A stretch of DNA of 64,000 bases from an uncultured Bacteroidales bacterium (GCA_963732575.1 CAVTAA010000006.1:64509-128508); one strand, 5' to 3'. Counted from the first letter of the stretch, positions 5,349 to 37,083 are shown. Notes: generated from the letters alone by a model not told the origin. A program made the numbers and translations.

Positions 5349-5395
5349 ATGTGTGCAAATATCCGAAACTGAATATAAGCAAGTGATAATCCCAT

Positions 5396-8796: not shown

Positions 8797-8805
8797 GATG
8801 AACAG

Positions 8806-10773: not shown

Positions 10774-10781
10774 ACCTGAAA

Positions 10782-13134: not shown

Positions 13135-13146
13135 TAAAGAATTGAA

Positions 13147-13705
13147 ATGGATAAAGTAATTCTTGTTTATTGCACTTAGCCTGCCCGTCATTTACCTTTC
13201 AAAACGGACCCTTTTTGATATAAAAAGTCACGGTTTCCCGCGTTTTTTCAGCTGGGAATGCATTATCGCACTCATCGTGGCAAACTACAAATTCTGGTTT
13301 GTTGAGCCGCTTGTCGGTAAAACAGGTCATTTCGTGGTTACTGCTTGCGATTTCTGTTTACATGGTGATCGCAGGTGTCTTGCTTCTCAGAAGAGCCCGT
13401 AAACCCGGAATAGTAAGGGTAGATGATAAGCTCTTTAAATTTGAGAAGACCACAGAGCTTGTAACTACCGGAATCTTTAAGTATGTAAGGCATCCGCTCT
13501 ACTCGTTCACTGCTGTTTCTTACCTGGGGTATATTACTTCAAGCACCCGACAGTCATCATGACTTTAGTGGCCCTGCTCTCATCGGTCCTTCTCTGGTTT
13601 ACTGCAGTGGGAGACGAAAAGGAGTGTATTGCTTATTTCGGCGACAGCTACAGGGACTATATGAAAGCGAACAAAAAGATTTATACCTTTTGTTATCTGA
13701 AATAA
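13147..13705 (+). pseudogene. Isoprenylcysteine carboxyl methyltransferase (ICMT)/phospholipid methyltransferase family membrane protein, at least 3 frameshifts
   Basis: GIFKYVRHPLYS is the family hallmark, and hydrophobic segments are spread over three frames. The tail ..DEKECIAYFGDSYRDYMKANKK ends at TAA 13703-13705. Confidence 0.65.
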
Positions 13706-13707
13706 GA

Positions 13708-14944
13708 TCAGTACAGCATCCTTACCCGTATTGTTCCTTCAATTGACCGCAGTTCCCTGATGATGCTGCTGTCAAGCGTGCTCTCGGTGTCAATTATCAC
13801 ATAGCCTACTTCAGCGTCAGTCTGAAGATATTCAGCATGCAATGTTTATTCCTTTGGAAGTGAACACATAGTTCACCTCTTTCAGCACCCCCGGTTCATT
13901 CTTATGAATATGGAGGAACCGTTGGGCATTGCAGTTAGGCTGAAGGGATATCTGCACAAAGTTCGTGGCGCCGATCGTGTCTCCGGTGTCGCTGTACCTC
14001 ACCAGCTTCTCAGCCACTTCAGTGCCAATGTTTTCCTGGGCTTCGGTGGTGCTCCCTCCCACATGAGGCGACAGTATGACATTTTCAAACATGCGCAGGT
14101 CCGAGACAAACGTATCTCCGCTTGAAGCCGGTTCATCAGGAAAGACATCAAGAGCAGCTCCCAGGATATGCTCTTCCCTGAGGGCAGATACCAGGGCAGG
14201 GATGTTGACCACCGAACCCCTTGACGCATTGATAAGGCATGACCCTTTCCTCATCAGGCTGATCTCCTTTTTACCTATCATGTCCCGCGTCAGCGGTGTC
14301 TCGGGAACATGGAGAGTGACAACATGAGCAACAGACAGACAGTTCGGCAAGAGAGCCACAGGCGACTGCCTTGCCAAGGCTGAGCTTCTTCACAATATCA
14401 TAATAATAGACATTCATGCCAAGAGCTTCTGCCAGAATCGATACCTGTGATCCAATATGACCGTATCCTATTATACCCAAGGTTCTTACCCCGTACTTCG
14501 ATATGAATTACTTGCTGATTTAAGCCATTTGCCCATGTGAGCCGCAGCATTCTTTGCCGGAATATTACGCATGAGAAGGATGCATTCGGCAATGACAAGC
14601 TCCGCTACCGAGCGTGTGTTGGAAAAAGGAGCATTAAAAACCGGGATGCCCCTGAGCCTGGCAGCACGACCGTCAACCTGGTTGGTGCCAATACTGAAGC
14701 AGCCAATTGCGAAGAGCTTGTCAGCCATGCTCAGCACTTCTTCGGTAATCTCAGTTCGTGAGCGGATCCCGATAATATTTATATTCTTTATTTTATCCTT
14801 CAGCGCAGCATCATCAAGTGAACCTGAACAGGTTTCAATATTTGTGTATCCGTTGGCTGTGAAGAATTCAACTGCACTTTGATGAATTCCTTCCAGTAAC
14901 AGAACTTTAATCTTGTTCTTATCAAGTGAAAACTTCTGAGACAT
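13708..14944 (-). pseudogene. serA: D-3-phosphoglycerate dehydrogenase, 3 frameshifts as sequenced
   Basis: The N-terminal piece 14486..14944 contains IKVLLLEGIHQSAVEFF..GCFSIGTNQVD..IPVFNAPFSNTRSVAELV and is near-colinear with E. coli SerA. The middle pieces contain GIIGYGHIGSQ and NASRGSVV..PHVGGSTTEAQENIG. The ACT-domain tail AEYLQTDAEVGYVIIDTE..GTIRVRMLY lies in a fourth frame and ends at 13708. Confidence 0.9.
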
Positions 14945-15062
14945 CGATGAATGAATTTAAGAGATACCGCCAGATTGATGCCGGAAACAAACCAGGCTGG
15001 AAATGTAATCAAAAGTGTCACTCATTATGTGAGAGTTGATTTAATGTTAATAAATTAGCAAT

Positions 15063-16409
15063 ATGTTTGAGTGGCTAAGACACTGGCGCTACGGTGACCA
15101 GTATGGTTATGAAACTTTCTTCAGAAAGCAGGACAAAAGAACTGTTGGCAAGCCAGGTATCATCCTGGCTGACCTGGGAATGCCCGAAGCCTATGATGCT
15201 GAGTTCTATACCAAATTCATGGGTCATGTTTTTGCATATTCCCTGCCTCTCTTTCTTCATAAGCTCATTCTGGCTGACAGGGGTATAGCATTGATTGATC
15301 CGTCTAATCCTCTTGCCCGGGAACCGTTCAGTCCCAGCCAGCTGATTGACATGTATGGCTCATTTGTAAACAAGGCAGGTATTCCGTACATAAACTGCAA
15401 AGTAAAATGGTGCCCACCCGGAATGAAAAGGAACCCTTCAGACCATGGATATTTTCTTTATACCGCAGATGGCAGGGGCGGCGCCCCCGAGGTATGCCAG
15501 AAGACGGCTGCAAAAGTCGCCGGCTGGTACTACGGACATCTCCTTCCTGAGAAAAAAGTAGCATGGGAGCATCAGTGCAGGTGCATCTATGATGAAACAG
15601 TTGCGGTACTCAGGAGCGAATTTCCGGGGACAGAATTTTGCCATGCACGTTATACCTATGAGGAATCAGTACTGCAGGCGGTGGAGGAGCTCCTGTCAAA
15701 AGGATGCGAGACTATCATTTATCAATGTTTCTGTAATCCTGTTTACTCTGACTTCGAGGACTATGCTTATGCCCTGCCGATGGTTCACCGTCTAGTCGGT
15801 AAAAGAGCAAAAGTCATCTGTGCCGATCAGCCTGGCAGTCAGCCGGCGATGCGTGAGGCCTATGTGCAGATCGTGCGTGACCGGTTGATGCAAATCCCTG
15901 GCAATCAGAGCATCCTGCTTATCCTCTCAAAGCATGGTCATCCTTTCAGAAAAGATACTATGGATTCAAGGGGGGCTGAGTATCGTGTGCCCCTTGAGAC
16001 AGGGATGAAGCGAGCCCTTGATCAATGGGGAGGAAGATGGAATCTGGTCTGGAGCCAGGATGAATATGCGGATGAATACTGGGATCCCCGTAACAGGAAA
16101 ATTTCAACCTATTCAGCTTACCGAAAAGCTATCGATGAGGGATACGATTATACTATTGAGGTGCCAACCGACTTCATAGCGGAGAACACTGACCTGATGG
16201 TCCTTCATGCATTGAAAAAGTTCACGGCGTTCAAAGTGTATGACCCCTTTGCACCTATTCCTTACACGAATTGGGAAGAACCTCTTGTAAGAACCTTCCA
16301 GGAAGGAAAAACAACTGGAATTTATACTGGCTGCCCGGTTGGCAGGTATCGCCACCATGTGGTCGAAGCAGTCAGCGCTTCCATATCAGAAATTCTGAAG
16401 AATGCATAA
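15063..16409 (+). CDS. Divergent ferrochelatase-fold (class II chelatase-like) protein, function unknown
   Basis: This is an intact 448-aa ORF. GIILADLGMPEAYD..FYTKF resembles the HemH N-terminus (gvLLvNLGtPd). ILLILSKHGHPF aligns with the SAHSLP catalytic-His motif. EVPTDFIAENTDLMVL aligns with PvGFvaDHlEvL. The protein is about 100 aa longer than typical HemH. Confidence 0.55.
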   Translation: MFEWLRHWRYGDQYGYETFFRKQDKRTVGKPGIILADLGMPEAYDAEFYTKFMGHVFAYSLPLFLHKLILADRGIALIDPSNPLAREPFSPSQLIDMYGSFVNKAGIPYINCKVKWCPPGMKRNPSDHGYFLYTADGRGGAPEVCQKTAAKVAGWYYGHLLPEKKVAWEHQCRCIYDETVAVLRSEFPGTEFCHARYTYEESVLQAVEELLSKGCETIIYQCFCNPVYSDFEDYAYALPMVHRLVGKRAKVICADQPGSQPAMREAYVQIVRDRLMQIPGNQSILLILSKHGHPFRKDTMDSRGAEYRVPLETGMKRALDQWGGRWNLVWSQDEYADEYWDPRNRKISTYSAYRKAIDEGYDYTIEVPTDFIAENTDLMVLHALKKFTAFKVYDPFAPIPYTNWEEPLVRTFQEGKTTGIYTGCPVGRYRHHVVEAVSASISEILKNA

Positions 16410-16455
16410 TTAAAGTCGGAAAATATATGACATGTAATAATATAAAACAGCCGAA

Positions 16456-17874
16456 ATGAAAATACTGCTTACCGGGGCGACCGGGTATATCGCTAAAAGA
16501 CTTCTGCCGGTGCTGCTTGCAGAGGGACATCATGTTGTGTGCTGCGTCAGGGATGCTAAAAGATTTAAAACCTCCGGATTAAGAAATGATAACCTGGAAG
16601 TAATTGAGGTTAACTTCCTCGAAAGGTCAACACTTGAACGAATCCCTGAAGATATTGATGCCGCATACTATCTCATCCATTCAATGTCAGCCTCAACGGC
16701 CGATTTTGATTCAATGGAAAAGACGTCTGCAGTTAACTTCAGGGACAGGATCAATAATACACAGGTCAGACAGGTTATCTATCTGAGCGGAATCGTCAAC
16801 ACCGACAAGTTGTCAAAGCACCTGGCATCTCGCAAGGCTGTGGAGGAGGAACTGACCGGGGGCAAATATCATCTCACAACCCTCAGGGCAGGAATAATTC
16901 TTGGTTCAGGCAGCGCCTCCTTTGAAATAATCAGGGATCTTGTTGAAAAACTTCCTGTCATGGTTGCTCCCCGGTGGCTGAATACCAAATCGCAGCCTAT
17001 TGCTATTCAGAACGTCATTGAATATCTCAGCGGCGTGTTGCTCAGGGAAAGTACATTCGATAAAAGCTTTGATATCGGCGGTCCGGATATTATGACTTAC
17101 AAAGAGATGCTCCTGAGATTTGCGGCAGTAAGAAATCTCAGACGCAGGGTGTATGTCGTTCCGGTAATGACACCCAAGCTTTCTTCATACTGGCTCTATT
17201 TTGTCACATCAACATCTTACAAGCTTGCCATCAATCTTGTTGACAGCATGAAAGTTGAGGTCATCTGCCGTGAAAACGATCTCCAGCAGCAACTGAAAAT
17301 CAAGCTGTTGAGTTTTGACGAAGCCGTCAGGGTGGCATTTGAAAAAATCGAAAATCACAATGTAACATCAAGCTGGACCGATGCCCTGTCGACCGCCACT
17401 CTTGAAAAAGGGATTTCAGACCTGATTAAAGTCCCTGAATACGGTTGCCTTTTTGACAGAAGATCCAAAACAATTACTGATGAAGAACTGGTTCTGAACA
17501 GACTGTGGTCCATCGGCGGTAAGACAGGCTGGTATTATGCCAACTGGCTGTGGGGAATAAGGGGTTTTATGGATAAACTGAACGGCGGGGTAGGCCTTCG
17601 CAGGGGCAGAAAGAATGATACCCAGATCGAACCAGGCGATGCACTCGATTTCTGGAGAGTGCTTGTTGCTGACAGAACAGCGAAGAGACTCCTGCTCTAT
17701 GCGGAGATGAAACTTCCGGGAGAGGCATGGCTTGAGTTTAAGATCGAAAATAACACGCTTATCCAGACAGCCACTTTCAGGCCGCTAGGTCTGAAGGGCA
17801 GACTGTACTGGTACTCTGTGATGCCATTTCATGAACTGGTGTTCAGAGGAATGATTAATCGTATAACTGCTTGA
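16456..17874 (+). CDS. NAD(P)H-binding SDR-like protein with C-terminal DUF2867-like domain
   Basis: MKILLTGATGYIAKRLL is a Rossmann GxxGxxG motif. At 472 aa, the C-terminal roughly 170 aa (..WYYANWLWGIRGFMDKLNGGVGLRRGR..) match my recollection of DUF2867. This needs HMM confirmation. Confidence 0.75.
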   Translation: MKILLTGATGYIAKRLLPVLLAEGHHVVCCVRDAKRFKTSGLRNDNLEVIEVNFLERSTLERIPEDIDAAYYLIHSMSASTADFDSMEKTSAVNFRDRINNTQVRQVIYLSGIVNTDKLSKHLASRKAVEEELTGGKYHLTTLRAGIILGSGSASFEIIRDLVEKLPVMVAPRWLNTKSQPIAIQNVIEYLSGVLLRESTFDKSFDIGGPDIMTYKEMLLRFAAVRNLRRRVYVVPVMTPKLSSYWLYFVTSTSYKLAINLVDSMKVEVICRENDLQQQLKIKLLSFDEAVRVAFEKIENHNVTSSWTDALSTATLEKGISDLIKVPEYGCLFDRRSKTITDEELVLNRLWSIGGKTGWYYANWLWGIRGFMDKLNGGVGLRRGRKNDTQIEPGDALDFWRVLVADRTAKRLLLYAEMKLPGEAWLEFKIENNTLIQTATFRPLGLKGRLYWYSVMPFHELVFRGMINRITA

Positions 17875-17972
17875 AATTATCAGATCAAATATTATTTTTG
17901 TTTAATGTGAAAGCCATTATGTTCTGCTGTTAATGCCTCAGCAGGGCAAATCCGGACAGTTAACCACAGATA

Positions 17973-20312
17973 ATGGTACACGGAATGAAGCACCAGCCAT
18001 CAATAAAAAGACTGAGAGCAGGGCTCAAGTCGGACGAGACAGGTAACAAGGCTAATTCGCTGATATTTCTTCACAGATACGGTTTTAATATCCCACTTAC
18101 TTTTCTTGTCAGCACATATGCTCATGACAGATTCCTTAAGGAGGGTGCGGATTTTCTTGATGAGCTCAGAAATGAGGTATCCGCTCTCCCCGATAAAGTT
18201 TATGCTGTCCGCTCTTCAACAACTGCTGAAGATTCTCCGGAGTATAGTTTTGCCGGGCAGTTTCAGACCCTGATTAACATAAGCGGCACTGAAAAAATTC
18301 TTGAAGCGATAAAGACTGTCTGGGCATCTGCCTCATTGTTGAATGATAACGAATATCTAAAGAGAACCAGGATCTCCTCGCTCAGATGCGCAGTCATAAT
18401 TCAGGAAATGATACCCGCCGTACTGGCCGGCGTCAGCTTCAGCCGCAATCCCGTTACAAACCAGAATGAGATAGTTATTGAAGCTGTTGAGGGTGCCGGT
18501 GAGGATCTGGTGCAGAAGGGCTACACCCCTCTGCGATGGAGGATCAGAAAGGACTTAATCTTTGAAGGGAACGGCCAATACCCTCTCTTTTCAGTCATCA
18601 GGCAGGTATCGGCAGACACAGCCCGGCTCAGACGTTACTATGGCAATCATATTGACATAGAATGGGTGTATGACGGGAAACAGCTCTATTATCTGCAGCT
18701 GCGCCAGATAACAGGCAGAAAGGAGATGCAGATCTATTCGAACAAGATGGCCAAGGAGATGCTGCCCGGTCAGATCAAGCCGCTGGTATGGTCTGTCAAC
18801 ATCCCGATGGTGAACGGCACCTGGATACAACTGCTTGAAGAGATTACCGGACCCCTGGAAATAAAACCTGAAGATCTGGTAAAACAATTCTACTATCAAA
18901 TGTACCTCAACACTGCCGCACTGGGGAAAATATTCAGTGAGTTCGGAATGTCAGCTGACAGCCTTGAGCAGCTCATGATCAGAGATGAAAAGTCAAGCCA
19001 TTCGTTCAAACCCGGTCTGAAAACCCTGAGGCATACATTCAGGATAATTAAGTTCGTGGCTGCAAAGATGCGTTTTGAAAAGATATTCCTGGCTGAATAC
19101 TCTGAGCTTAAAGCGAAATCCACCTTTTATGATGGAATGCTGAGAAAAGATTTGTCCATTGACTCTTATCCTGAAATCTATTCGATGCTTTTTAATACCG
19201 GAAAGAGGCTGGCATATCTGAATATAGTGGCGCCGATGCTGATGACAATGCACCACAAGAGACTGAAGAGCAAACTGAAAGAGCTTCATCTTGATTATGA
19301 CAAGATTGATTTCAGACCAGATTTCCCTGAATTGACATCCTTCTCCCCTGTTCCGCTCATTGACAGTATAAGGAAAGAGATCGGGAAGCTGCCGCCTGTG
19401 ATCAGAGAGCAATGCACAACTCTTGAAAAGCTCAGATCCTTCAGGGAAGCAGACAACATAAGCAGCAGTATTGACAGGTTAATTAAGGATTTCGGCCATC
19501 TCAGCGAAAGCGGCAATGATTTTTCATATCCCAAATGGGAAGAGGATCACGAAATGGTTTTCCATTTAATCAGGTCATCTTCTGAACATGAATCAAAATC
19601 AGAACTTGACAGCCTTGATAAAATCCGCCGGAGAGGTGTAAAGATCGCTCCTTCCTTGTATAAGAGCTATATGAAAGCCGGCAGATACAAAGTGTATCGC
19701 GAACAGATCAGCTCTTTATATATTTACGGTTACGGCCTTTTCCGAAGGCTCTTCCTGTACCTGGGAAAGGAGTTTGCCGCCAGGCGGATCATCAATAACG
19801 AAAATGACATCTTTTACCTGAAAAAAGAGGAAATAGACAGCATCCTTGAGAATTTTTCCAAGCCTGACATTACCTGTTATAATGATGTTATACAACAGCG
19901 GAAGTCAGAGATGGAAGAGACAAAAGACATCGTACTTCCTCCGGTTATCTATGGTGATGACGCTCCACTCCCTGCAAATGACAAGTCTAAGAATCATTCC
20001 GGGACAGGGACTTCTCCGGGAACCTACACGGGGAAGACAAGGGTGGTGAAAAGCATCAGTGATTTCGATGCCGTCACCAATGGTGATGTTCTGCTTATCC
20101 CCTTTTCAGATGTGAGCTGGACCCCGGTGCTGGCCAGGGCCGGTGCAATTGTCTCAGAAACAGGCGGAATGCTCTCACACTGTTCTATCATAGCCAGGGA
20201 GATGGGGATACCTGCACTTGTTTCCGTACCTAACGCATGCATTATAGGTAACGGAATGAAAGTTACAGTCAACGGATCAAATGGAATATTAACCCTGCAC
20301 GATTATGAATGA
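17973..20312 (+). CDS. PEP/pyruvate-binding (PPDK_N ATP-grasp) protein with C-terminal PEP-utilising swivel-His domain; PEP synthase / rifampicin-phosphotransferase-like architecture
   Basis: The ORF is 779 aa. The N-terminus reads GNKANSL..VRSSTTAEDSPEYSFAGQFQT and the C-terminus reads GDVLLIPFSDVSWTPVL..ETGGMLSHCSIIAREMGIPALV (phospho-histidine motif). There is no C-terminal TIM-barrel PEP-binding domain. Confidence 0.85.
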   Translation: MVHGMKHQPSIKRLRAGLKSDETGNKANSLIFLHRYGFNIPLTFLVSTYAHDRFLKEGADFLDELRNEVSALPDKVYAVRSSTTAEDSPEYSFAGQFQTLINISGTEKILEAIKTVWASASLLNDNEYLKRTRISSLRCAVIIQEMIPAVLAGVSFSRNPVTNQNEIVIEAVEGAGEDLVQKGYTPLRWRIRKDLIFEGNGQYPLFSVIRQVSADTARLRRYYGNHIDIEWVYDGKQLYYLQLRQITGRKEMQIYSNKMAKEMLPGQIKPLVWSVNIPMVNGTWIQLLEEITGPLEIKPEDLVKQFYYQMYLNTAALGKIFSEFGMSADSLEQLMIRDEKSSHSFKPGLKTLRHTFRIIKFVAAKMRFEKIFLAEYSELKAKSTFYDGMLRKDLSIDSYPEIYSMLFNTGKRLAYLNIVAPMLMTMHHKRLKSKLKELHLDYDKIDFRPDFPELTSFSPVPLIDSIRKEIGKLPPVIREQCTTLEKLRSFREADNISSSIDRLIKDFGHLSESGNDFSYPKWEEDHEMVFHLIRSSSEHESKSELDSLDKIRRRGVKIAPSLYKSYMKAGRYKVYREQISSLYIYGYGLFRRLFLYLGKEFAARRIINNENDIFYLKKEEIDSILENFSKPDITCYNDVIQQRKSEMEETKDIVLPPVIYGDDAPLPANDKSKNHSGTGTSPGTYTGKTRVVKSISDFDAVTNGDVLLIPFSDVSWTPVLARAGAIVSETGGMLSHCSIIAREMGIPALVSVPNACIIGNGMKVTVNGSNGILTLHDYE

Positions 20313-21081
20313 GGTAACAGCATTTCTTGAAAGCCACCCGCTGCTGCTTGTCCTTATTTGCAGCCTGATCGGCTACCTGCTTGGATCAATCTCCTTTGCC
20401 AGAATTGTATATCGTAACGTGACGAAGGGCAAGGATCTTGAATTCTACTCTGAACCGATTGAAGGCACTGATGAAAAATTCGATTCTGACTTTGTAAGCG
20501 CAACACTCGTTAATAAACGGATAGGCGCAAAGTACGGCTGCCTGACCTCACTTGCAGATATGCTCAAAGTCGCACTGCCCACTCTGATCGCAAAACTTGC
20601 TTTCACATCAGAACCGTATTTTCTTATCATCCCCATTTTTGGAATACTTGGCCACTACCTACCTGTGTATCATAACTTTATCGGAGGAAGGGGTGAGACA
20701 ATCATGATGGGTGCAATGTTTGTTGTGAATTGGCTCGGAACGATCATCGTCTTTGCTGTCTCAACCATTCTGGGATTTGTCACCGGCAGTGTGATAGTGC
20801 TCCGTTATGCAGGCTATTTCCTGATGATATTCTGGCTTTGGCATCACTATGGTGACTACCGTTACGGTCTGTTTATGTTCATTCTGTACGGGCTTTTTTG
20901 GTTTTCCATGCGAAAGGAAATCGCTTTGCTGATTACGCTTCGTAAAAAAGGGCTATGGAATGATACCAACGAGCAGCTTTCAGAAAAGATGTATATGGGA
21001 AGAGATATTGGAAGAGCTATTGACAATTACAGCATTCCGTCCCTGTACAAAAAGCTCAAAGCAGGTAAAAAATCGCACTGA
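20305..21081 (+). CDS. PlsY-like (G3P acyltransferase family) integral membrane protein, divergent
   Basis: The 258-aa membrane protein has GYLLGSISFARIV and GHYLPVYHNFIGGRGETI, which parallel the PlsY motifs GYLLGSIPF and GHiFPvflgFkGGKGvAT. The SGNxGATN-type motif is not recognisable. The gene overlaps the upstream dikinase-like gene by 8 nt. Confidence 0.55.
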   Translation: MNEVTAFLESHPLLLVLICSLIGYLLGSISFARIVYRNVTKGKDLEFYSEPIEGTDEKFDSDFVSATLVNKRIGAKYGCLTSLADMLKVALPTLIAKLAFTSEPYFLIIPIFGILGHYLPVYHNFIGGRGETIMMGAMFVVNWLGTIIVFAVSTILGFVTGSVIVLRYAGYFLMIFWLWHHYGDYRYGLFMFILYGLFWFSMRKEIALLITLRKKGLWNDTNEQLSEKMYMGRDIGRAIDNYSIPSLYKKLKAGKKSH

Positions 21082-21086
21082 AACAG

Positions 21087-22238
21087 ATGAAAAGAATTGT
21101 CCCGGTCCTTCTGTTATTCCTGTTGTGCAGCTCTCAGCACATTACAGCACAAAAAGCCGGTATCAGCCTTGATAACCAGATCAGTACCTGGCTGGGAATG
21201 AATTATGTCGACAAGGTCTACTGGCAGGCAGGCGCCAGATATATACCGACATTAAACCCCTTCCTGAATCTCAACAAGAAAAGCAAAATTGATGCTGAAC
21301 TTTCTCTCAATACTTACGGTAACCTGCTATTCACCGAAGCAGACTATGACACTGTTCTTTATGACCTGAAACCTTATCGTCTATGGCTCAGATATTCTGC
21401 ATCAAACCTGGAAATAAGGGCCGGGCTTCAAAAGATTACCTTCGGTTCTGCAACGATTATGAGACCGCTGATGTGGTTTGACAATATTGACGTGAGGGAC
21501 CCGCTCCAGCTCACGGAAGGTGTCTATTCCCTGCTCGGACGCTATTATTTCAATAATAATATAAATATCTGGCTGTGGACCCTTTACGGAAACAAAAACA
21601 AAAAAGGATGGGAAGTTGTCCCCTCTGTTTATGAAATACCCGAGTTTGGCGGGAGACTGCAGCTTCCTGTGCCGAAAGGTGAAATGGGTTTTAGTTACCA
21701 TCACCGGATTGCTGATTATTCAGAATTGTATGCCGGCAACCCCCTTATCACCGAAACAGATTTTTCAGAACAGATGATAGGTCTTGACGGCAAATGGGAT
21801 ATCGGACCCGGTATATGGTTCGAGGGAGTCGTAAAACTGAATGATAAGGATAATCAGACTCTAAACAGGTGGGAGACATATTACACAATAGGCATCGACT
21901 ATACCTTTGCTATCGGCAACGGACTTAACGTTGCTTCCGAGTTTTTTCATTATTCGAACAATATCGATGATGAACAGCTGAGGGCCACACAGAACTTCTC
22001 AACACTGTCGCTGAACTACCCTCTCTTTCTTTCTCACAGTCTGTCATGCCTTGTATATTACAACTGGGACGCGGAGGAATGGTACAGGATGTTAAACCTC
22101 CAGCTTAAGTACAATTATGTAAGTTTGAACCTTATGGCATTCTGGAATCCCGATAAATTTACAATATTCACCGGAGAAAGCGACAGCAATACCTTCGCCG
22201 GGAAAGGGTTTCAGCTTATGCTTGTTGTTGACATATAA
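21087..22238 (+). CDS. Putative outer-membrane beta-barrel protein (signal peptide), unknown family
   Basis: The signal peptide is MKRIVPVLLLFLLCSSQHITAQ. The 383-aa protein is rich in alternating aromatic/polar stretches (RLWLRYSASNLEIRAGLQKITFG, ETYYTIGIDYTFAIGNGLNVASEFFHY). I recognise no family. Confidence 0.45.
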   Translation: MKRIVPVLLLFLLCSSQHITAQKAGISLDNQISTWLGMNYVDKVYWQAGARYIPTLNPFLNLNKKSKIDAELSLNTYGNLLFTEADYDTVLYDLKPYRLWLRYSASNLEIRAGLQKITFGSATIMRPLMWFDNIDVRDPLQLTEGVYSLLGRYYFNNNINIWLWTLYGNKNKKGWEVVPSVYEIPEFGGRLQLPVPKGEMGFSYHHRIADYSELYAGNPLITETDFSEQMIGLDGKWDIGPGIWFEGVVKLNDKDNQTLNRWETYYTIGIDYTFAIGNGLNVASEFFHYSNNIDDEQLRATQNFSTLSLNYPLFLSHSLSCLVYYNWDAEEWYRMLNLQLKYNYVSLNLMAFWNPDKFTIFTGESDSNTFAGKGFQLMLVVDI

Positions 22239-22254
22239 GTTAAATATCACACAA

Positions 22255-22956
22255 ATGGATAGCGAAAAGATCATCACAATTGAAGGCCTTAAGAAGCATT
22301 TCCCGATGGGCAGCGGAACATTCACCGCGCTGAACGGCATTGATCTGAATTTTGGCCGGGGTGAATTTGCCGGCATTATCGGCCCGAGTGGTTCGGGAAA
22401 GACAACCCTACTGAACATAATAGGTTCGCTTGACGTGCCGTCAGAGGGAAAAGCAGTGATCCTGAATCAGTCAGTCGGAAGCCTGAGCCCGGCAGCCTCT
22501 GCCTCACTGCGCAAAACGCAGCTTGGTTTTATTTTCCAGACATATAATCTCTTCCAGGTGTACACCGTATTTGAAAATGTGGAATTTCCTCTCCTGCTGC
22601 AGGGAATAGAAACGTCAAAGAGAAAACAGATGGTGCTCGACGCGCTTGAATGGGTCGGCCTGACGGATAAAATCAAGTCCCGCCCGGCCCAGCTCTCCGG
22701 CGGGGAGTGCCAGAGGGTGGCAATCGCCCGGGCCATGGTCAAGAAACCTGCTGTTGTCCTGGCTGATGAGCCGACAGCTAACCTTGACGCTGCCAACTCG
22801 CATCATATACTTAAAACCATGGAGAAGCTCAACCGCGAGCTTAATACAACTTTCATTTTTGCAACCCATGATGAAAAGGTGATCAGCTATGTCAGAAGGA
22901 AAATCTACCTCGCAGACGGCAGAGTGGCAAAAGATGAGATAATTGAAAAAAACTGA
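22255..22956 (+). CDS. ABC transporter ATP-binding protein, LolD/MacB-type
   Basis: Walker [11 protein letters not shown]-loop FIFQTYNL, signature [14 protein letters not shown] and Walker B VVLADEPT are present. I prefer ATG 22255 ([12 protein letters not shown]) to the TTG at 22222. Confidence 0.9.
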
Positions 22957-22971
22957 GCGGAGGACAAGAAT

Positions 22972-24144
22972 ATGCTCGCTTTTAAACTTGCACTGAGAAA
23001 CCTCCTGGGAGCAGGATTACGCACATGGCTTAATGTCATAGTACTTTCCTTCTCATTTATAATCATCATTTGGACCAAAGGACTGCTGGAAGGATGGGAC
23101 CGGCAGGCAAAGAATGATATGATCAGCTGGGAGGTGGCAGGAGGTCAGTACTGGCACCAAAACTATGACCCCTATGATCCTTTCACTCTTTCTGACAGCC
23201 ACGGACCGGTGCCGCAGGAATTATCGACCCGGGTAAGTGATTCTTCTGTTATCCCCGTACTTATCACCCAGGGAACCATTTATCCTCAGGGAAGAATGCA
23301 CTCCGTGATTATCAAAGGCATTGCGCCGGAACAGAAAGTTGTAGAGCTGCCGACTGCAATGATGAAGGCTGAGGAAGGAGAGATACCTGCAATTATTGGC
23401 AAGGCGATGGCTCAGAGTACAGGATTAAAGGTAGATGATTATGTCACGCTCAGATGGAGAGACAGGAACGGGACTTTTGATGCCACAGAGATCAGGATTG
23501 CTCACGTTTTTGAAACAACTGTACCTACAGCTGATGTTGGCCAGGTGTGGCTTCCTGTTGAAGATCTGCGCAAGATGATGCTGATGCCGGGAGAGGCGAC
23601 TTTATTCATTGCATCTGAAGACCTTGCCGGTGCTCCTGTAACGACGGAGTGGATCTATAAAGACCAGAAAACTCTGCTGTCTGACCTGGAGAAGATAATC
23701 AAATCAAAAAGCGCGGTTGGCGTTATTATCTGGGGCATTATGCTTCTGATGGCCATGCTTGCAGTATTTGATACTCAGGTTTTGTCAATCTTCAGAAGAC
23801 AGAAGGAGATAGGGACCTATGTGGCCCTCGGAATGACAAGAGGCCAGGTTGTGGGATTGTTCACACTGGAAGGAGCCATGCATTCAGTGCTTGCAGCTCT
23901 GGTAGGAGCCGTCTATGGGATCCCTCTTTTGATGCTTCAGTCTGCCAGGGGAGTCAAAATACCTCTGAGCAGCAGCGACTTCGGAATATCCATGGCTGAG
24001 AGGCTGTACCCGGTATACAGCCTGGCGCTTATTACAGGAACTGTTGCCATCGTGTTCCTCGTAACAACCCTTGTCAGTTACTGGCCGTCACGAAAAATAG
24101 CTAAAATGAATCCAACAGAAGCGTTGAGAGGGAGGATACAATGA
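22972..24144 (+). CDS. FtsX/MacB-like ABC permease (first of two)
   Basis: The 390-aa protein has an N-terminal TM helix, a large periplasmic domain and a C-terminal FtsX-type 3-TM bundle ending ..SYWPSRKIAKMNPTEALRG. Confidence 0.8.
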   Translation: MLAFKLALRNLLGAGLRTWLNVIVLSFSFIIIIWTKGLLEGWDRQAKNDMISWEVAGGQYWHQNYDPYDPFTLSDSHGPVPQELSTRVSDSSVIPVLITQGTIYPQGRMHSVIIKGIAPEQKVVELPTAMMKAEEGEIPAIIGKAMAQSTGLKVDDYVTLRWRDRNGTFDATEIRIAHVFETTVPTADVGQVWLPVEDLRKMMLMPGEATLFIASEDLAGAPVTTEWIYKDQKTLLSDLEKIIKSKSAVGVIIWGIMLLMAMLAVFDTQVLSIFRRQKEIGTYVALGMTRGQVVGLFTLEGAMHSVLAALVGAVYGIPLLMLQSARGVKIPLSSSDFGISMAERLYPVYSLALITGTVAIVFLVTTLVSYWPSRKIAKMNPTEALRGRIQ

Positions 24145-25415
24145 TCAGATTTCTCTTTAAAGGACTCATCAGGGACAAGCACAGAAGCCTTATCCCGTTT
24201 CTCGTTACCGCTTCGGGAGTAATGCTTACTGTTATATTCCACGCATGGATGACAGGAGTAATTGGCAACAGTATTGAGTTTAATGCACGCTTTTCTGCCG
24301 GGCATGTTAAAATCATGACCAGGGCGTACGCCGAAAATGCCACCCAATCACCTAACGATCTTGCCATCCTGGGAACTGACACACTCACAGGCATAATAGC
24401 ATCTAAATGGCCGGAGATGGAGTTTGCAGAGCGTATTTACTTCGCCGGCATTGTTGACGTACCCGATCAGTCGGGGGAGACAAAAGCACAGGGACCCGCT
24501 ATGGGCTTCGGGATTGACATGCTGTCAGGCAGTATGGCTGAAACGAACCGCCTCAATATCCCTTCATCGCTTAAGACCGGCAGGCTGCCGGAGAAAAATG
24601 ATGAAGTCCTTCTGAGCAAAGAATTCGCTGATAAGCTGGGCCTCAATCCCGGTGACAAGATAACACTTGTGGGCTCAAGCATGTATGGTGAACTTACAAT
24701 GCATAATTTCATTCTGAGCGGTACTGTGGAATTCGGTACCACGGCTCTTGACAGGGGTACCATCATCGCAGATATTGAAGATGTCAGAGAGGCACTTAAT
24801 ATGTATGATGCCTCTGGCGAAATACTCGGATTCTTCCGCGCAGGAACATATGATGATGAACAGGCCAGGGCAATAACAACAAGCTTCAACCAATTGTTTT
24901 CATTTGAATCAGATGAGTTCTCTCCTGTAATGAGGAGTCTGTCACAGGACAAAACAATGGGATTCCTGGTTGAATACTCCGGTAAGCTGCAGGGCCTGCT
25001 GGTTGCTGTTTTTATTATTTCCATGTCGCTCATACTGTGGAATGCAGGCCTTCTCGGAGGACTGAGAAGATACGGGGAGTTCGGAATGCGGCTGGCAATC
25101 GGTGAAGAAAAAGGTCATGTTTACAGGACAATGATGATGGAATCTTTCCTGATCGGATTGTTCGGATCAATTGCAGGTGTCGCCGGCGGGATTATAGTGG
25201 CATTGTATCTCCAAAATCACGGAGTTGACCTGGGCTTTATGATGAAGAATGCTTCCATTATGATGCCCCGCGTGTTCAGAGCACATATTACTCCTGAAAC
25301 ATGGTATATTGGTTTAATCCCAGGTTTCGTTTCAACACAGCTTGGCACTATGCTTGCAGGTATCGGTATTTATAAACGCCAGACCGCACAACTTTTTAAA
25401 GAACTTGAGGCATGA
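24141..25415 (+). CDS. FtsX/MacB-like ABC permease (second of two)
   Basis: The 424-aa protein has the same topology as the preceding gene, with a 4-nt overlap at each end. Confidence 0.8.
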   Translation: MIRFLFKGLIRDKHRSLIPFLVTASGVMLTVIFHAWMTGVIGNSIEFNARFSAGHVKIMTRAYAENATQSPNDLAILGTDTLTGIIASKWPEMEFAERIYFAGIVDVPDQSGETKAQGPAMGFGIDMLSGSMAETNRLNIPSSLKTGRLPEKNDEVLLSKEFADKLGLNPGDKITLVGSSMYGELTMHNFILSGTVEFGTTALDRGTIIADIEDVREALNMYDASGEILGFFRAGTYDDEQARAITTSFNQLFSFESDEFSPVMRSLSQDKTMGFLVEYSGKLQGLLVAVFIISMSLILWNAGLLGGLRRYGEFGMRLAIGEEKGHVYRTMMMESFLIGLFGSIAGVAGGIIVALYLQNHGVDLGFMMKNASIMMPRVFRAHITPETWYIGLIPGFVSTQLGTMLAGIGIYKRQTAQLFKELEA

Positions 25416-26155
25416 AAAAACTGATTTTCACTTTTATATTGATACTGACCGGGTTCAGCGCTGTCAATGCGCAATACCCCGATGGAAAAGCCATACTGCT
25501 GAAAATTGACCAGAACCTTTCATCGGAGAACCGCATCTTTCTTTCATCCATGATAATTCACGGACGGAGAAGCACACATACTGTGAAAATGAAAACATGG
25601 ACTGCCGGTGAGAAGAGATCATTCACTGAGTATCTTTTTCCGGCACGCGAGCAGGGAACCAAGATGCTGAAGCTTGAAGACCAGATGTGGATCTACTCTC
25701 CGGAAGCCGACCGGATAATTCAGATCGCCGGGCACATGCTGCGCCAGTCGGTAATGGGTTCTGATCTCTCCTATGAGGACCTCATGGAAGACAGCAGGCT
25801 GACAGACCGTTACAACGCAGAAGTGACCGGGACAGAAACTGTTGACGGACGAATCTGCTGGGTTGTTGACCTTAAGGCTTTCGTGCCTGAGATTGCATAC
25901 CAGGGAATGAAAATATGGGTAGACCAGGATCGGAATATTCCTCTTCGCGAAGAGATGTACGCCAAAAGCGGAACACTGCTTAAACGGACCGAACTTTCAA
26001 ATGTTGAACTCATAAACAAGCGGTGGTACCCGAAAAAGATCCTCTTCAAGGATATGCTTAAAGAAGGAATGGGTACTGAGCTGATTGTTGAAGATATTCA
26101 GTTCAATGTGCCTATCGCTGACCACATCTTTTCAAAGGCCAGCCTCAAGAAATAG
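25412..26155 (+). CDS. LolA-like outer membrane lipoprotein-sorting protein family
   Basis: The protein has a signal peptide and a body (..KMKTWTAGEKRSFTEYLFPAREQGTKMLKLEDQMWIYSPEADRIIQI..MGSDLSYEDL..) typical of the LolA_like / outer membrane lipoprotein-sorting proteins that accompany FtsX-type ABC systems. Confidence 0.8.
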   Translation: MKKLIFTFILILTGFSAVNAQYPDGKAILLKIDQNLSSENRIFLSSMIIHGRRSTHTVKMKTWTAGEKRSFTEYLFPAREQGTKMLKLEDQMWIYSPEADRIIQIAGHMLRQSVMGSDLSYEDLMEDSRLTDRYNAEVTGTETVDGRICWVVDLKAFVPEIAYQGMKIWVDQDRNIPLREEMYAKSGTLLKRTELSNVELINKRWYPKKILFKDMLKEGMGTELIVEDIQFNVPIADHIFSKASLKK

Positions 26156-26255
26156 CAAGGGGCATAGAGCAAGGAGCAAGGAGCAAGGAGTAAAGGGCAA
26201 GGAGCCAGACAAGGAACCCTCCTTTGCCAAGGCTTCGGAGGACAAGGCAAGGAAC
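26154..26255. repeat. Imperfect tandem heptamer array, consensus AGCAAGG, in a convergent intergenic gap
   Basis: Units start at 26154, 26161, 26168, 26175, 26182, 26189, 26196, 26203 and 26210. The exact AGCAAGG occurs at 26154, 26168, 26175 and 26182, and GGCAAGG at 26196. More CAAGG copies follow up to about 26253. Confidence 0.6.
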
Positions 26256-26256
26256 A

Positions 26257-27183
26257 TTATTGTTTTTTGTCAACCGGTGCTGAAAGTGGCTTTGACTGAA
26301 TATAGGTTACTGAACTGTCAGTACTAAGGGTCAGGTCAAAGCAGACACCTTCCTCCGTCTCACCCTTAAGAAAATATGCCAGCCACGGGATAAGATACCT
26401 GGTCAGAATACGAAGCTGCTCCTCCCCGCTGATGCCAGGTGTGCAGCGTGCCATCTTTTCTCCCGTTATACACTTTGGATGACTGACACCCATCTGACAA
26501 TGTGTGCCTCCGGTAATCAGTATATATGTTTTATCAGGACTGGCGGAAGCGTTGTATAAAGGAACCTGATGCTTTTCTGCCGGTGTAATGCAGTCATTGC
26601 TGCCGGCAATGATGAGAGTGGGAGCTGTCACTGAGGCTGCTGCCCTGATGGAAGAAGTTCTGGTCTCAAGTGGCGCCAGGCCAACAACTGCGTCGATGTC
26701 CGTATTCATTTCTGCCCCGAGAAACAGTGAACCCCCTCCCATGCTGTGACCCATCAGGCACTTTGCAGTATCAATGCGGTTATACAAAAAGAACGAACTG
26801 TCAGTCCCAAGCCTGCTGATCTCATCCAATGCGAAACATAAATCTTCACCAAGAGTTTTATGAGACGGAAACAACCCGTCCTCACTGTTCGGAAATACCA
26901 ATATATATCCCTGTGGTACAAGAATATCGACAATATGCTGATACCAGACTCCCGACAGAAGATAACCATGGCCAAAACATATAAGCGGATACTTTTCATT
27001 ATTCCGCACTGTATTTGAACTGCTGTCTCCAATGTTCATTTCAGGATAAAAGATCTCCACGGGTATTTTCCGGTTTCTGCGTGAGGTATCCTTAAGAGTA
27101 ATTGAAGAGTGGCCTGCATTGTAACCCTGCGAGGCAATATCCGCGCAGAAAAGCATCGCAGCAATTAGAAATAATCCTCTCAT
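26257..27183 (-). CDS. Secreted alpha/beta hydrolase, dienelactone-hydrolase/cutinase (PETase-like) type
   Basis: This is an intact 308-aa ORF with signal peptide MRGLFLIAAMLFCADIASQ. The nucleophile elbow is MGHSMGGGSLF. VTAPTLIIAGSNDCITP supplies the Asp and ITGGTHCQ supplies the His. The protein is colinear with polyesterase/cutinase-like enzymes. Confidence 0.8.
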   Translation of the reverse strand: MRGLFLIAAMLFCADIASQGYNAGHSSITLKDTSRRNRKIPVEIFYPEMNIGDSSSNTVRNNEKYPLICFGHGYLLSGVWYQHIVDILVPQGYILVFPNSEDGLFPSHKTLGEDLCFALDEISRLGTDSSFFLYNRIDTAKCLMGHSMGGGSLFLGAEMNTDIDAVVGLAPLETRTSSIRAAASVTAPTLIIAGSNDCITPAEKHQVPLYNASASPDKTYILITGGTHCQMGVSHPKCITGEKMARCTPGISGEEQLRILTRYLIPWLAYFLKGETEEGVCFDLTLSTDSSVTYIQSKPLSAPVDKKQ

Positions 27184-27282: not shown

Positions 27283-27300
27283 ATTGAATTTACATAAACC

Positions 27301-28276
27301 ATGAAAATTGCTGTTACCGGCGCTTCAGGGCATGTGGGCGCCAACCTGTGCAGATTGCTGATTGACCAGGGTCATGAGGTTAAAGCTCTGATACACAATA
27401 GCACAAAAGGCATTGAGGATCTTGGTCTCGAATTTGTTCACGGTGAAATTAACAGTGAAGCTGATCTCAGAAAACTCTGTTCAGGCTGTGAAATAGTATT
27501 TCATCTTGCGGCTTGCATCAGCATCAGGAAAAACGATAATAATTGCCGGAAAATAAATACAGACAGTTGTGTTACCCTGCTCAAAGCAGCAAAGGCTGAA
27601 GGGGTCAGAAAAATAATTCATTTCAGTTCAATACATGCCTATGACCAGGAGCCTCTTGACATTGAACTGGATGAAACACGAAGCCTTGCCCTGGAAGGCG
27701 GGGCATCATATGAAAGATCAAAAGCTCTGGGGCAGAAGATAATGATTGAGGCATCATCACCCGGGCTTGAGGTGGTTGTGCTTAAATCCGACAGCAATAA
27801 TAGGACCTAATGATTTTCAGCCATCCCTGCTCGGTAATGCAATCATCAGGTTCTTCAAAGGCCAGAACCCGAGCCTGCTGCCCGGTGGATATAACTGGGT
27901 TGACGTCAGGGATGTATGCACTGCCGCAATAAATGCCATAGAACTGGGTGTTCCGGGAGAAAGTTATTTACTTGGAGGAAGCTGGCAAAGCCTGAAGACA
28001 ATGGCTGCAACAATTGAAAAACTTGGAGGTCATAAAGCTCCGTGGCTATGTCTGCCGATGTCAATAGCGTATCTTGGCGCGATATTTCTGAACCTCCATG
28101 CCACCGTCACAAAGAGTGTTCCGTTATATACTGCAATGTCGCTTGAAACACTGAAGCAAGGACACAGGAATATCTCAAGCAGAAAGGCGACGAAGGCTCT
28201 TGGCTTCTCACCACGTCCTTTTGAAGAGACCATGGCAGATACATTAAACTGGTTTAAGGAAAACAAATATATCTAA
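27301..28276 (+). pseudogene. NAD-dependent epimerase/dehydratase (dihydroflavonol-4-reductase-like SDR), one frameshift
   Basis: MKIAVTGASGHVGANLCRLL is a Rossmann motif. Fragments 27301..27810 and 27746..28276 join as ..GLEVVVLNPTAIIGPND.. if one A is removed from AAA at 27784-27786. Confidence 0.8.
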
Positions 28277-29038: not shown

Positions 29039-29062
29039 ATTTAACGGTACATAATTTCAATC

Positions 29063-29786: not shown

Positions 29787-29791
29787 AAAAG

Positions 29792-33579: not shown

Positions 33580-33591
33580 ACAAGCAACATT

Positions 33592-34941: not shown

Positions 34942-34953
34942 CAACGCTTGAAT

Positions 34954-36293: not shown

Positions 36294-36321
36294 AAATGAA
36301 ACACTGGTTGCAGCAATACTG

Positions 36322-37071: not shown

Positions 37072-37083
37072 AAACAGGCATAT

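Follow-up and report, generated by a model that had tools for sequence, protein, structure and literature searches.

The window, a 64,000-nucleotide stretch of DNA from an uncultured Bacteroidales bacterium (CAVTAA010000006.1:64509-128508), carries a cluster of ten genes, g1 to g10, in which a PlsY-family membrane protein with an altered acceptor site is encoded next to an ATP-dependent phosphotransferase, an ABC transporter, a LolA-like carrier, and a predicted outer-membrane beta-barrel. The first nine genes lie on the plus strand between positions 15063 and 26155. The core is formed by g3 (17985-20312), which encodes a phosphotransferase similar to rifampin phosphotransferase (Rph), PigC, and phosphoenolpyruvate (PEP) synthase, and by g4 (20305-21081), which overlaps g3 by 8 nt and encodes the polytopic PlsY-family protein. 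They are preceded by g1 (15063-16409), a frequent partner of the core that encodes a cytoplasmic 448-residue protein with a class II chelatase (ferrochelatase) fold, and by g2 (16456-17874), an accessory gene for a YbjT-like short-chain dehydrogenase/reductase (SDR) with an NAD(P)-binding domain and a DUF2867 domain. The core is followed by g5 (21087-22238), encoding a secreted porin-like outer-membrane beta-barrel of approximately 18 strands, and g6 (22255-22956), encoding an ABC ATPase of the LolD/MacB/FtsE type. Next come g7 (22972-24144) and g8 (24141-25415), the genes of two FtsX/MacB-type permeases of a type VII ABC transporter, and g9 (25412-26155), encoding a periplasmic LolA-like carrier (PF17131, similar to TP_0789). 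The tenth gene, g10 (26257-27183), is located on the minus strand, convergent with the operon and syntenic with it in related genomes, and encodes an exported serine esterase resembling cutinases, PETases, and chlorophyllases.

The open reading frames (ORFs) of g1 to g9 have lengths of 448, 472, 779, 258, 383, 244, 390, 424, and 247 residues. The ORF of g3 opens at position 17973 (779 residues), homologues of the protein are 775 residues long, and the true start is probably at 17985, which gives 775 residues. The ORF of g6 opens at 22222 (244 residues), and the ATG at 22255 gives a protein of 233 residues. A preliminary description of the locus counted ten co-directional genes in 15063-26155. 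There are nine, as its own eight gaps and nine products imply. The gaps of 46, 98, -8, 5, 16, 15, -4, and -4 nt were reproduced exactly with the start of g6 placed at 22255, and its nine domain assignments agree with Pfam and NCBIfam or, for g5, with a signal peptide and an AlphaFold2 model of a barrel. According to hydropathy, g1, g2, g3, and g6 have no signal peptide or membrane-anchor segment, and the single internal hydrophobic stretch of g3 is a 19-mer at residues 135-153. The proteins g4, g7, and g8 are polytopic, and g5, g9, and g10 carry signal peptides. This predicted topology fits the arrangement proposed in the preliminary description, which leads from the cytoplasm through the inner membrane and a type VII ABC transporter to a periplasmic carrier and an outer-membrane barrel.

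Relatives of g3 occur in 284 of 185,579 species-representative genomes searched by alignment of g3 homologues. Eighty loci were fetched from the 284 carriers and compared by tblastn, all-against-all clustering of ORFs, and hidden Markov models built from the clusters. All the fetched loci come from metagenome-assembled genomes (MAGs) of Bacteroidales/Rikenellaceae, Anaerolineae, and other Chloroflexota, with single loci from Ignavibacteria, KSB1, Thermodesulfobacteriota, and a 'delta proteobacterium'. The genes g3 and g4 are no more than 1.6 kb apart in 54 of the 56 loci that have at least 1.5 kb of sequence on both sides (Bacteroidota 38/39, Chloroflexota 15/15, others 1/2). Of the 32 long-flanked Bacteroidota loci, 29 carry the genes of the barrel and both permeases as well as the LolA-like gene. 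The ATPase gene was found in 27 and the convergent esterase gene in 28 of these loci. A chelatase-like gene is present in 26 of them, 21 of the g1 type (chelA) and five of a second type (chelB), but never both, and the SDR-DUF2867 gene in 18. The order g3-g4-g5-g6-g7-g8-g9 followed by the convergent g10 recurs in most, 29 of 32, of the long Bacteroidota loci, and the homologues of the block in Bacteroidota and Ignavibacteria MAGs have protein identities down to 37-60%.

The eight Chloroflexota loci with long flanks all contain the PlsY-like gene. The chelB type is present in 4/8, the ATPase in 4/8, and a fused permease in 5/8, whereas the barrel and the LolA-like gene occur in none. The Ignavibacteria locus L076 contains the full set of genes, with the transport module positioned upstream instead of downstream. 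The gene order differs among the phyla, and the linkage is therefore functional and not inherited synteny; the genes of the block are not neighbours by chance. Carrier and barrel occur only in diderm lineages and are absent from the Anaerolineae loci, which fits a role in the periplasm and outer membrane. The Anaerolineae loci without carrier and barrel, where no outer membrane is expected, retain the ABC part.

The preliminary description considered that the adjacency might be unique to this contig. The set instead recurs in many related and unrelated genomes. The architecture read from the sequence in that description holds for the most part. The membership of the set was only partly as described: g3 to g9 are recurrent, g2 is an accessory gene, g1 is frequent but not universal, and the esterase gene, which lies beyond the nine genes originally considered, belongs to the cluster. 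Candidates for further core members, namely DegV, GTP cyclohydrolase I, Fasciclin, and TonB-dependent receptors, were rejected, as each is present in only one to three loci. The impression that no characterised pathway has this composition also held, since no pigment, lipid A, lipoprotein, or other cluster was matched in NCBIfam, in Pfam, in the PDB by sequence or fold, or in the literature. The literature search returned no description of the cluster or its subfamilies. The cluster is thus real, conserved, present in multiple phyla, and undescribed in the literature and databases searched. One MAG, MFD00032.bin.3.335, contains three contigs (CAVRBS010000018, ...02, and ...01; loci L028, L036, and L043), each with a whole cluster, whose g3 products are 76%, 80%, and 68% identical to that of the window; they are either true paralogues or the result of a bin of mixed related strains.

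The g4 protein belongs to the PlsY family (PF02660, E=7e-19, 69 bits against a gathering score of 24.1), but it reaches only 63.6 bits with the PlsY equivalog model TIGR00023, which has a cut-off of 137.2. It can be aligned to PlsY from Aquifex (PDB: 5XJ5) with an E-value of 1e-8. The crystal structure of the Aquifex enzyme assigned the roles of residues in the phosphate hole and in the glycerol-3-phosphate clamp (PMC5700162). The phosphate hole is kept in the g4 family: H117, G127, G128, and G130, which correspond to His92 and Gly102-Gly103-x-Gly105, are invariant in 20-21 sequences from three phyla, and the position of Thr41 is occupied by threonine or serine. The glycerol-3-phosphate clamp, in contrast, is lost. 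The position of Ser35 is variable, Arg45 is replaced by lysine, glutamine, or other residues, Lys104 by arginine, serine, glycine, or tryptophan, His177 by arginine, and Asn180 by isoleucine. The position of Asn37 is occupied by phenylalanine or leucine. Furthermore, g4 contains an insertion of approximately 15 residues after transmembrane helix (TM) 1 and a C-terminal extension of approximately 50 residues relative to PlsY. Among 1.84 billion cluster representatives, 637 belong to the g4 subfamily at E<=1e-3, 183 at E<=1e-10, and 32 at E<=1e-30.

Two ORFs, P0368 (622 residues) and P0366 (381 residues), combine a PlsY-like N-terminus with a g5-like barrel, with a signal-peptide-like stretch between them. 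P0368 was considered as a Rosetta stone fusion of the two proteins and was rejected; it carries an internal signal peptide, and both ORFs most likely arise by read-through of adjacent genes. The ORFs provide evidence of adjacency only, in a lineage in which the PlsY-like part is 37-38% identical to g4.

The g3 protein is composed of an ATP-grasp domain (PPDK_N, E=9e-38), a family-specific central domain that may bind the substrate, and a phospho-histidine swivel domain (PEP-utilizers, E=5e-19). The motif GGMLSHCSIIAREMGIP, including the swivel histidine (SH), is invariant in the alignment of the g3 family. No PEP/pyruvate-binding C-terminal TIM-barrel domain was detected by Pfam, and the swivel domain forms the C-terminal end of the protein, at residue 775-779. 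The best sequence match in the PDB is Listeria rifampin phosphotransferase (PDB: 5FBS, 5HV1; E 3e-60), and the Pfam Rph_4th domain is precomputed in homologues of g3. The NCBIfam models of PEP synthase, PigC, RedH, and Rph match with approximately 180-215 bits, and every equivalog cut-off is far missed: the PEP_synth equivalog gives 165 bits against 740, and the Rph models NF041857 and NF000283 give 178.6 against 999 and 111.7 against 1700, respectively. The Rph-type layout with the swivel histidine motif but without a PEP/pyruvate-binding domain indicates that g3 is a kinase of a substrate and not a PEP synthase. In one Anaerolineae MAG (L070:8525-12181), the Rph-like ORF is preceded in frame by approximately 430 residues with a signal peptide and repeated Gly/Tyr-rich modules, which could be an artefact of ORF calling or a real fusion.

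The products of g5 to g9 would together span the envelope. The g5 protein has no match in Pfam or NCBIfam. Its AlphaFold2 model, with an N-terminal signal peptide, is a barrel of approximately 18 strands with a predicted local distance difference test score (pLDDT) of 81, and Foldseek aligns it to OmpF/OmpC-type porins and AlgE with E-values of approximately 5e-9 and TM-scores of approximately 0.5. A g5 homologue is also present in the Ignavibacteria locus L076. The barrel family has 4579 database hits and g3 has 579 scored hits, two counts that are not strictly comparable. The ATPase g6 (ABC_tran, E=3e-33) scores 226 bits with the LolD model TIGR02211, which has a cut-off of 307.75. The permeases g7 (FtsX, E=2.5e-14) and g8 (FtsX, E=1.2e-13, with a weak MacB_PCD match) score 52 and 34 bits, respectively, with the lolCE model TIGR02212, against a cut-off of 362. 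In the hydropathy profile of g7, TM1 is followed by a loop of approximately 200 residues and then TM2-4, and in that of g8, TM1 is followed by a loop of approximately 240 residues and two resolved C-terminal segments. The permease of the Chloroflexota loci is a single fused protein of approximately 861 residues, which contains two MacB_PCD and two FtsX regions. The ABC partner thus exists as a split pair in Bacteroidota (29/32) and as a fused permease in Chloroflexota (5/8), which are two independent architectures with the same association to g3-g4.

The carrier g9 is a member of the LolA_like family PF17131 (E=4e-57) and has a type I signal peptide without a lipobox cysteine. Its relatives in the PDB (9TP6, 3BUU, 4Z48, and 3BK5) are all uncharacterised proteins of the LolA superfamily, and the Bacteroidota models LolA1_Flavo and LolA3 give 19 bits against 100 and 16 bits against 83, respectively. 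No match to LolB was found among the nine genes or the examined genes of the immediate flanks. The type VII ABC systems, of which LolCDE and YbbAP-TesA are examples, take hydrophobic cargo out of the inner membrane (PMC12646458).

The similarity of g1 to ferrochelatases is mostly structural. The sequence scores 16.4 bits with PF00762 (E=0.005; cut-off 27) and 21.7 bits with the hemH equivalog TIGR00109 (cut-off 124.6), but its AlphaFold2 model (pLDDT 89.6) has the two-lobed chelatase fold. The top 43 PDB matches identified by Foldseek are all ferrochelatases, the best being the ferrochelatase/CpfC structures from B. subtilis and Listeria (E 1e-10), with target TM-scores of 0.68-0.72. His291 of g1, which is part of the invariant motif SKHGHPF, aligns with the catalytic histidine of CpfC (B. 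subtilis His183). The residue D377, an aspartate instead of a glutamate, was put at the metal-ligand position of Glu264 by eye, according to motif similarity only; it belongs to the motif FIAENTDLM, in which F371, A373-D377, and M379 are invariant. The protein is a putative chelatase with a predicted ferrochelatase fold. The alternative partner chelB matches PF00762 above the cut-off (36.4 bits against 27), also matches CbiX, and has N-terminal hydrophobic helices. The comparison of chelA and chelB by hhalign gave a probability of 11.6%, with no detectable homology, and the two are therefore treated as analogous chelatase-like partners and not as proven orthologues. Two g1-type proteins from Anaerolineae MAGs (P0160 and P0169) are 66-67% identical to g1 of the window, unusually high values across phyla that suggest horizontal transfer or mis-binning. 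The product of g2 contains DUF2867 (E=5e-31) and NAD_binding_10 (E=5e-11) domains, and its nearest sequence in the PDB is the NDUFA9-like epimerase/dehydratase subunit. The g2 gene is absent from loci including L001 and L002, and is located near the core in L055 and L057.

The esterase g10 matches the PETase (E=5.5e-21) and Chlorophyllase (E=1.6e-7) families, and PET hydrolases and cutinases in the PDB with E-values of approximately 8e-20. A signal peptide is present, and the nucleophile motif reads GHSMGG. Non-homologous esterases occur elsewhere: an Abhydrolase_1/PGAP1-like alpha/beta hydrolase in L057, L064, and L073, and a GDSL lipase with a type IX secretion system (T9SS) sorting tail by the core in L055. 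The presence of three unrelated types of exported or adjacent esterase beside the core points to an ester bond that is handled outside the cytoplasm.

The block is intact, as was claimed for it previously, and its flanks are riddled with frameshifts. Alignment of the flanks with intact homologues using tblastn identified approximately 19-21 frame switches in approximately 9.6 kb (8800-14950 and 27300-30330), or approximately two per kb, but none in 15063-27183, where all ten genes are in a single frame and of full length when compared with homologues. At approximately two switches per kb, the Poisson probability of none in 12 kb is about e^-24. The frame-switched genes upstream encode a 657-residue protein (8.8-10.7 kb), a GH95 protein (10.8-13.2 kb), a PEMT/ICMT-like protein (13.2-13.7 kb), and a 2-hydroxyacid dehydrogenase (13.7-14.9 kb). 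Those downstream (27.3-29.8 kb) encode a 3-beta-hydroxysteroid dehydrogenase (HSD)-like SDR, a steroid-5-alpha-reductase-like protein, and a protein without assigned family. The amino-acid divergence of the broken flank genes is no greater than that of the intact genes, and split genes are also present in related MAGs derived from nanopore sequencing. An independent 8.7-kb short-read contig has the same g2-g7 order and encodes a g3 protein identical to that of the window. Errors of assembly or polishing seem to us more likely to have caused the flank frameshifts than recent decay of the genes. A frameshift shared with the closest relative, L003, was considered and rejected, as the indels in the HSD gene, the one examined, are at different positions. 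Outside both dense patches, another ABC ATPase gene (5390-6284), which has no relation to the operon, appears to be split into two ORF pieces (5390 and 5682); this looks like a further frameshift.

The three frameshifted genes downstream of g10 (27301-29782, plus strand; intact at L005:19156-21673) form a possible accessory trio, encoding an SDR of the 3-beta-HSD/epimerase type, a membrane protein of the steroid-5-alpha-reductase family, and a 247-residue protein of unknown function. The intact homologues match Epimerase/3Beta_HSD and Steroid_dh (E=2e-51) in Pfam. The trio follows the cluster in 12-15 of the 32 Bacteroidota loci, and this linkage may merely mirror the kinship of those genomes. 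A PEMT/ICMT/ERG4-like membrane protein is encoded upstream of the cluster (13163-13697), and a DUF1295 protein upstream of the Rph-like gene in Chloroflexota. Together with the SDR-DUF2867 protein, these neighbours, which are linked to the cluster only in part, may hint at a polycyclic (sterol-like) or isoprenoid lipid. In L053 and L076, the g1/g3/g4 trio directly adjoins genes for TonB-dependent receptors, and in the Chloroflexota loci L056, L057, and L059 a membrane protein with a weak match to TspO (E=0.0017, below the cut-off) is encoded upstream. Further downstream in the window (32602-38701) there are genes for an Fe-S (Fer4_11) protein and an NrfD-type subunit, resembling alternative complex III, and an adjoining gene for heme-copper oxidase subunit I (COX1, E=2e-150), which shows that the organism respires with heme proteins. 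The overlap of the ORFs 37084-38535 and 38204-38701 suggests another frameshift. A riboswitch or another RNA that might point to the cargo was sought with Rfam, which gave no match at gathering thresholds for the window or for four of the loci; in 14800-18100 there was none even at E<=1. The scan for promoters and terminators was uninformative, because terminator-like sites were as frequent as expected from shuffled sequences, the 32 sigma-70 promoter-like matches (20.5 expected, sd 4.7) were scattered on either strand within genes, and the sigma-70 pattern is not that of Bacteroidota promoters.

The enzymes, transporter, and esterase that are linked in this way suggest to us, tentatively and with somewhat less than even odds, a conserved pathway in which a hydrophobic envelope molecule with an ester linkage is synthesised by acyl-phosphate-type chemistry and then passed to a Lol/MacB-like export line of its own. 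In the cytoplasm, g3 would phosphorylate a substrate that is small or lipidic, with ATP and by way of its phospho-histidine swivel domain, and the most economical product would be an acyl phosphate formed from a carboxylate. The translationally coupled g4 could then bind the phosphate in its phosphate hole and transfer the activated group to a membrane acceptor other than glycerol-3-phosphate. One of the two substrates, perhaps a tetrapyrrole or a different metal chelate, would be supplied or tailored by g1, and by g2 where present. The product would be extracted from the inner membrane, at its outer leaflet, by the type VII ABC transporter that g6, g7, and g8 form. In diderm lineages, g9 would ferry it over the periplasm to the g5 barrel in the outer membrane, and the exported g10 might hydrolyse or remodel the ester. 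The analysis shows the gene content, folds, conserved residues, topology, and linkage across phyla, whereas we infer the chemistry, the order of the steps, the outward direction of transport, and the nature of the product as a lipid or cofactor.

An acyl-phosphate donor is chemically plausible, because a phospho-histidine phosphorylates a carboxylate in succinyl-CoA synthetase, which forms a succinyl-phosphate intermediate. Several observations weigh against the proposed pathway, however. The characterised enzymes of the Rph, PigC, and phenylphosphate-synthase types phosphorylate, to our knowledge, hydroxyl or enol oxygens and not carboxylates. The synthesis of an acyl phosphate is unprecedented in the superfamily of g3, and its product may instead be a phosphate ester, a donor without precedent in PlsY-type transfer chemistry. 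The subfamilies of g3, g4, g1, g5, and g9 have no characterised member. The trio has no nearby ABC transporter in L053, L055, L063, and four of the eight long Chloroflexota loci, and the fetched region lacks the chelatase-fold gene in 6/32 Bacteroidota and 4/8 Chloroflexota loci. The barrel family is large, so that the transport module may handle other cargo as well. The weakest link of the model is the putative role of g1, which we, like the donor as acyl phosphate or phosphoester and the acceptor, only infer.

The only feature of the cluster itself that hints at the cargo is the chelatase fold, which suggests a tetrapyrrole or a metal chelate. The cluster could accordingly serve the handling of tetrapyrroles or heme, with the chelatase-fold protein inserting or removing a metal, g3 and g4 modifying a propionate side chain, and the MacB-type transporter, carrier, and barrel clearing the product from the membrane for detoxification or surface display. 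This explanation overlaps with the ester-linked envelope pathway, from which it differs mainly by naming the cargo and its purpose, and we regard it as possible but unlikely. It agrees with the retention of the catalytic histidine in the ferrochelatase fold of g1, with the above-threshold ferrochelatase match, CbiX match, and hydrophobic helices of chelB, and with the mutually exclusive association of chelA and chelB with the core. The adjoining TonB-dependent receptors lend it weak side support, the TspO-like protein would suit it, and the heme-copper oxidase indicates that the organism uses heme. HrtBA, a MacB-type pump, extracts heme from the membrane. The chelatase gene is, however, absent from 10 of the 40 long loci, the TspO match is below its cut-off, and the acidic metal ligand, identified by sequence inspection only, is Asp rather than Glu. 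Pfam searches of the neighbours and Rfam found no other tetrapyrrole gene or cobalamin riboswitch nearby, and nothing accounts for the action of a PlsY-type enzyme on a porphyrin. A more specific version, which we consider a long shot, is a new route for anchoring a metallated tetrapyrrole or metal-chelate cofactor in the membrane: g3 would make the acyl phosphate, the PlsY-fold protein would esterify it to a membrane alcohol, the ABC/LolA-like/porin line would place the product in the outer membrane, and the exported esterase could release it there.

It is improbable that the cluster consists of two unrelated modules, the g1/g3/g4 trio and a general-purpose type VII ABC/LolA-like/barrel system for the export of, for example, lipoproteins or peptides, kept adjacent by vertical inheritance in Bacteroidales. 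The loci L053, L055, and L063, in which the trio stands without a transporter, would be explained in this way, as would the higher number of hits of the barrel family, which suggests a module more widespread than the trio as far as the two counts can be compared. Nevertheless, the two halves are joined in the window by gaps of only 5, 16, and 15 nt and overlaps of 4 nt, and the ABC association recurs in Chloroflexota, where both the permease architecture and the order of the genes are different, and in Ignavibacteria, where the transport module is located upstream. The read-through ORF P0368, 37% identical to g4, has the same PlsY-barrel adjacency in a distant lineage. We find it very unlikely that the cluster is a resistance or detoxification cassette, in which g3 would inactivate a xenobiotic or antibiotic by phosphorylation, like rifampin phosphotransferase, its best match in the PDB, and the MacB-like pump would expel it. 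Pumps of the MacB family export antibiotics and peptides, but g3 remains far below the cut-offs of the Rph models (178 and 112 bits against 999 and 1700). Such a cassette would leave the esterase, the barrel, the LolA-like carrier, and the chelatase-fold protein without a role, as well as the PlsY-like protein to which g3 is linked. Moreover, the cluster is chromosomal, is conserved in environmental MAGs, and has no mobile-element features among its annotated neighbouring genes. That g4 is an ordinary PlsY and g6-g9 the lipoprotein-sorting Lol system of the cell is hardly credible and already contradicted. The Pfam families (PF02660, FtsX, and LolA-like) fit such housekeeping functions, and LolD is the top NCBIfam match of g6. 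However, the residues that bind glycerol-3-phosphate are lost in g4, the equivalog cut-offs of PlsY (63.6/137.2), LolCE (52 and 34/362), LolD (226/308), and LolA1_Flavo (19/100) are missed, and the rarity of g3 (284 of 185,579 species) and of g4 (183 clusters) contrasts with the near-universal distribution that would be expected of housekeeping genes.

PlsY is taken to be near-universal, to have a single function, and to be a target for antibiotics. Unexplored acyl-phosphate chemistry in the membrane is suggested by the existence of a rare paralogue in which the acyl-phosphate site is retained and the glycerol-3-phosphate site lost, and which is paired with a phosphotransferase of the Rph type. 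Through the ABC transporter, LolA-like carrier, barrel, and esterase, a route of cargo-specific delivery in the envelope would join Lol, Mla, Lpt, and YbbAP-TesA. A natural comparison is provided by the same core, which has an outer-membrane leg in diderms but none in Anaerolineae. The carriers seen so far are all uncultured, and the product could be a lipid or biomarker of Bacteroidales from sediments, soils, and digesters that has gone unrecognised. If the cofactor-anchoring route were correct, g4 would be the first member of the PlsY family to use an acceptor other than glycerol-3-phosphate and g3 the first acyl-phosphate synthetase in the PPDK superfamily. Uncultured Bacteroidales and Ignavibacteria would then have a surface-exposed cofactor of a new kind, and Anaerolineae its counterpart without the outer-membrane leg.

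The biosynthetic genes can be compared with three known groups of enzymes. PlsY uses an acyl phosphate, which is supplied by PlsX or FakA in the PlsX/PlsY and FakAB/PlsY pathways to phosphatidic acid. The g4 protein keeps the membership in the PlsY family with the phosphate-holding histidine and glycine loop, and g3 is a dedicated upstream partner that could supply a donor to g4 likewise. The differences are the lost glycerol-3-phosphate clamp, the insertion and C-terminal extension, the Rph/PEP-synthase-type partner in place of PlsX or FakA, and the rarity of the g4 subfamily as opposed to near-universal PlsY. The three-part architecture of g3 is that of Rph, PigC, RedH, and PEP synthase from the PPDK superfamily, from which g3 is set apart by the missed equivalog cut-offs, the lack of the PEP/pyruvate-binding domain, and the family-specific central domain. 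We know of no characterised member of this superfamily that is linked to a PlsY-like gene, as the g3 type is in 54/56 loci. The g1 model superposes on CpfC from B. subtilis and Listeria with a histidine at the catalytic position, but the sequence identity to HemH/CpfC is 12-16%, g1 is approximately 140 residues longer with a Cys-rich insertion, and its genomic context is free of tetrapyrrole biosynthesis genes. The chelB type, by its match to CbiX, resembles the CbiX/CbiK class II chelatases.

The transport genes share with LolCDE-LolA-LolB the layout of one ATPase, two FtsX-type permeases, and a soluble periplasmic carrier of the LolA superfamily. However, g9 belongs to PF17131 (TP_0789-like) and is not a canonical LolA, a porin-like barrel is encoded at the position of LolB, all the Lol equivalog cut-offs are missed, g6-g9 are embedded in a biosynthetic operon, and the ABC part of Chloroflexota has no carrier. 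The likeness to YbbAP-TesA is most apparent in Chloroflexota, the loci of which carry a YbbP-like fused double permease, and in L055 with its GDSL (TesA-type) lipase. In the window, in contrast, the esterase has a cutinase/PETase-like alpha/beta fold and not that of the SGNH hydrolases, the permease is split into two genes, and the carrier, barrel, and biosynthetic arm are additional. A precedent from Bacteroidota for a carrier within a biosynthetic locus, as with g9, is the flexirubin locus of Flavobacterium johnsoniae, in which LolA2/LolB2 provide a LolA-like carrier among the genes for a hydrophobic molecule (PMC11885536). Flexirubin is thought to be located in the outer membrane, and the role of LolA2/LolB2 is still presented there as a hypothesis (PMC11885536). 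The flexirubin locus contains polyketide/aryl-polyene genes instead of the Rph-like, PlsY-like, and chelatase-like genes, and LolB2 instead of a barrel, and no type VII ABC transporter is noted in the sections of that source on which this comparison draws. By analogy with Lol, YbbAP-TesA, and LolA2/LolB2, the cluster appears to function like a dedicated export line for an envelope lipid while being a member of none of these systems, and we rate it as an undescribed variant of such systems with an unprecedented biosynthetic front end.

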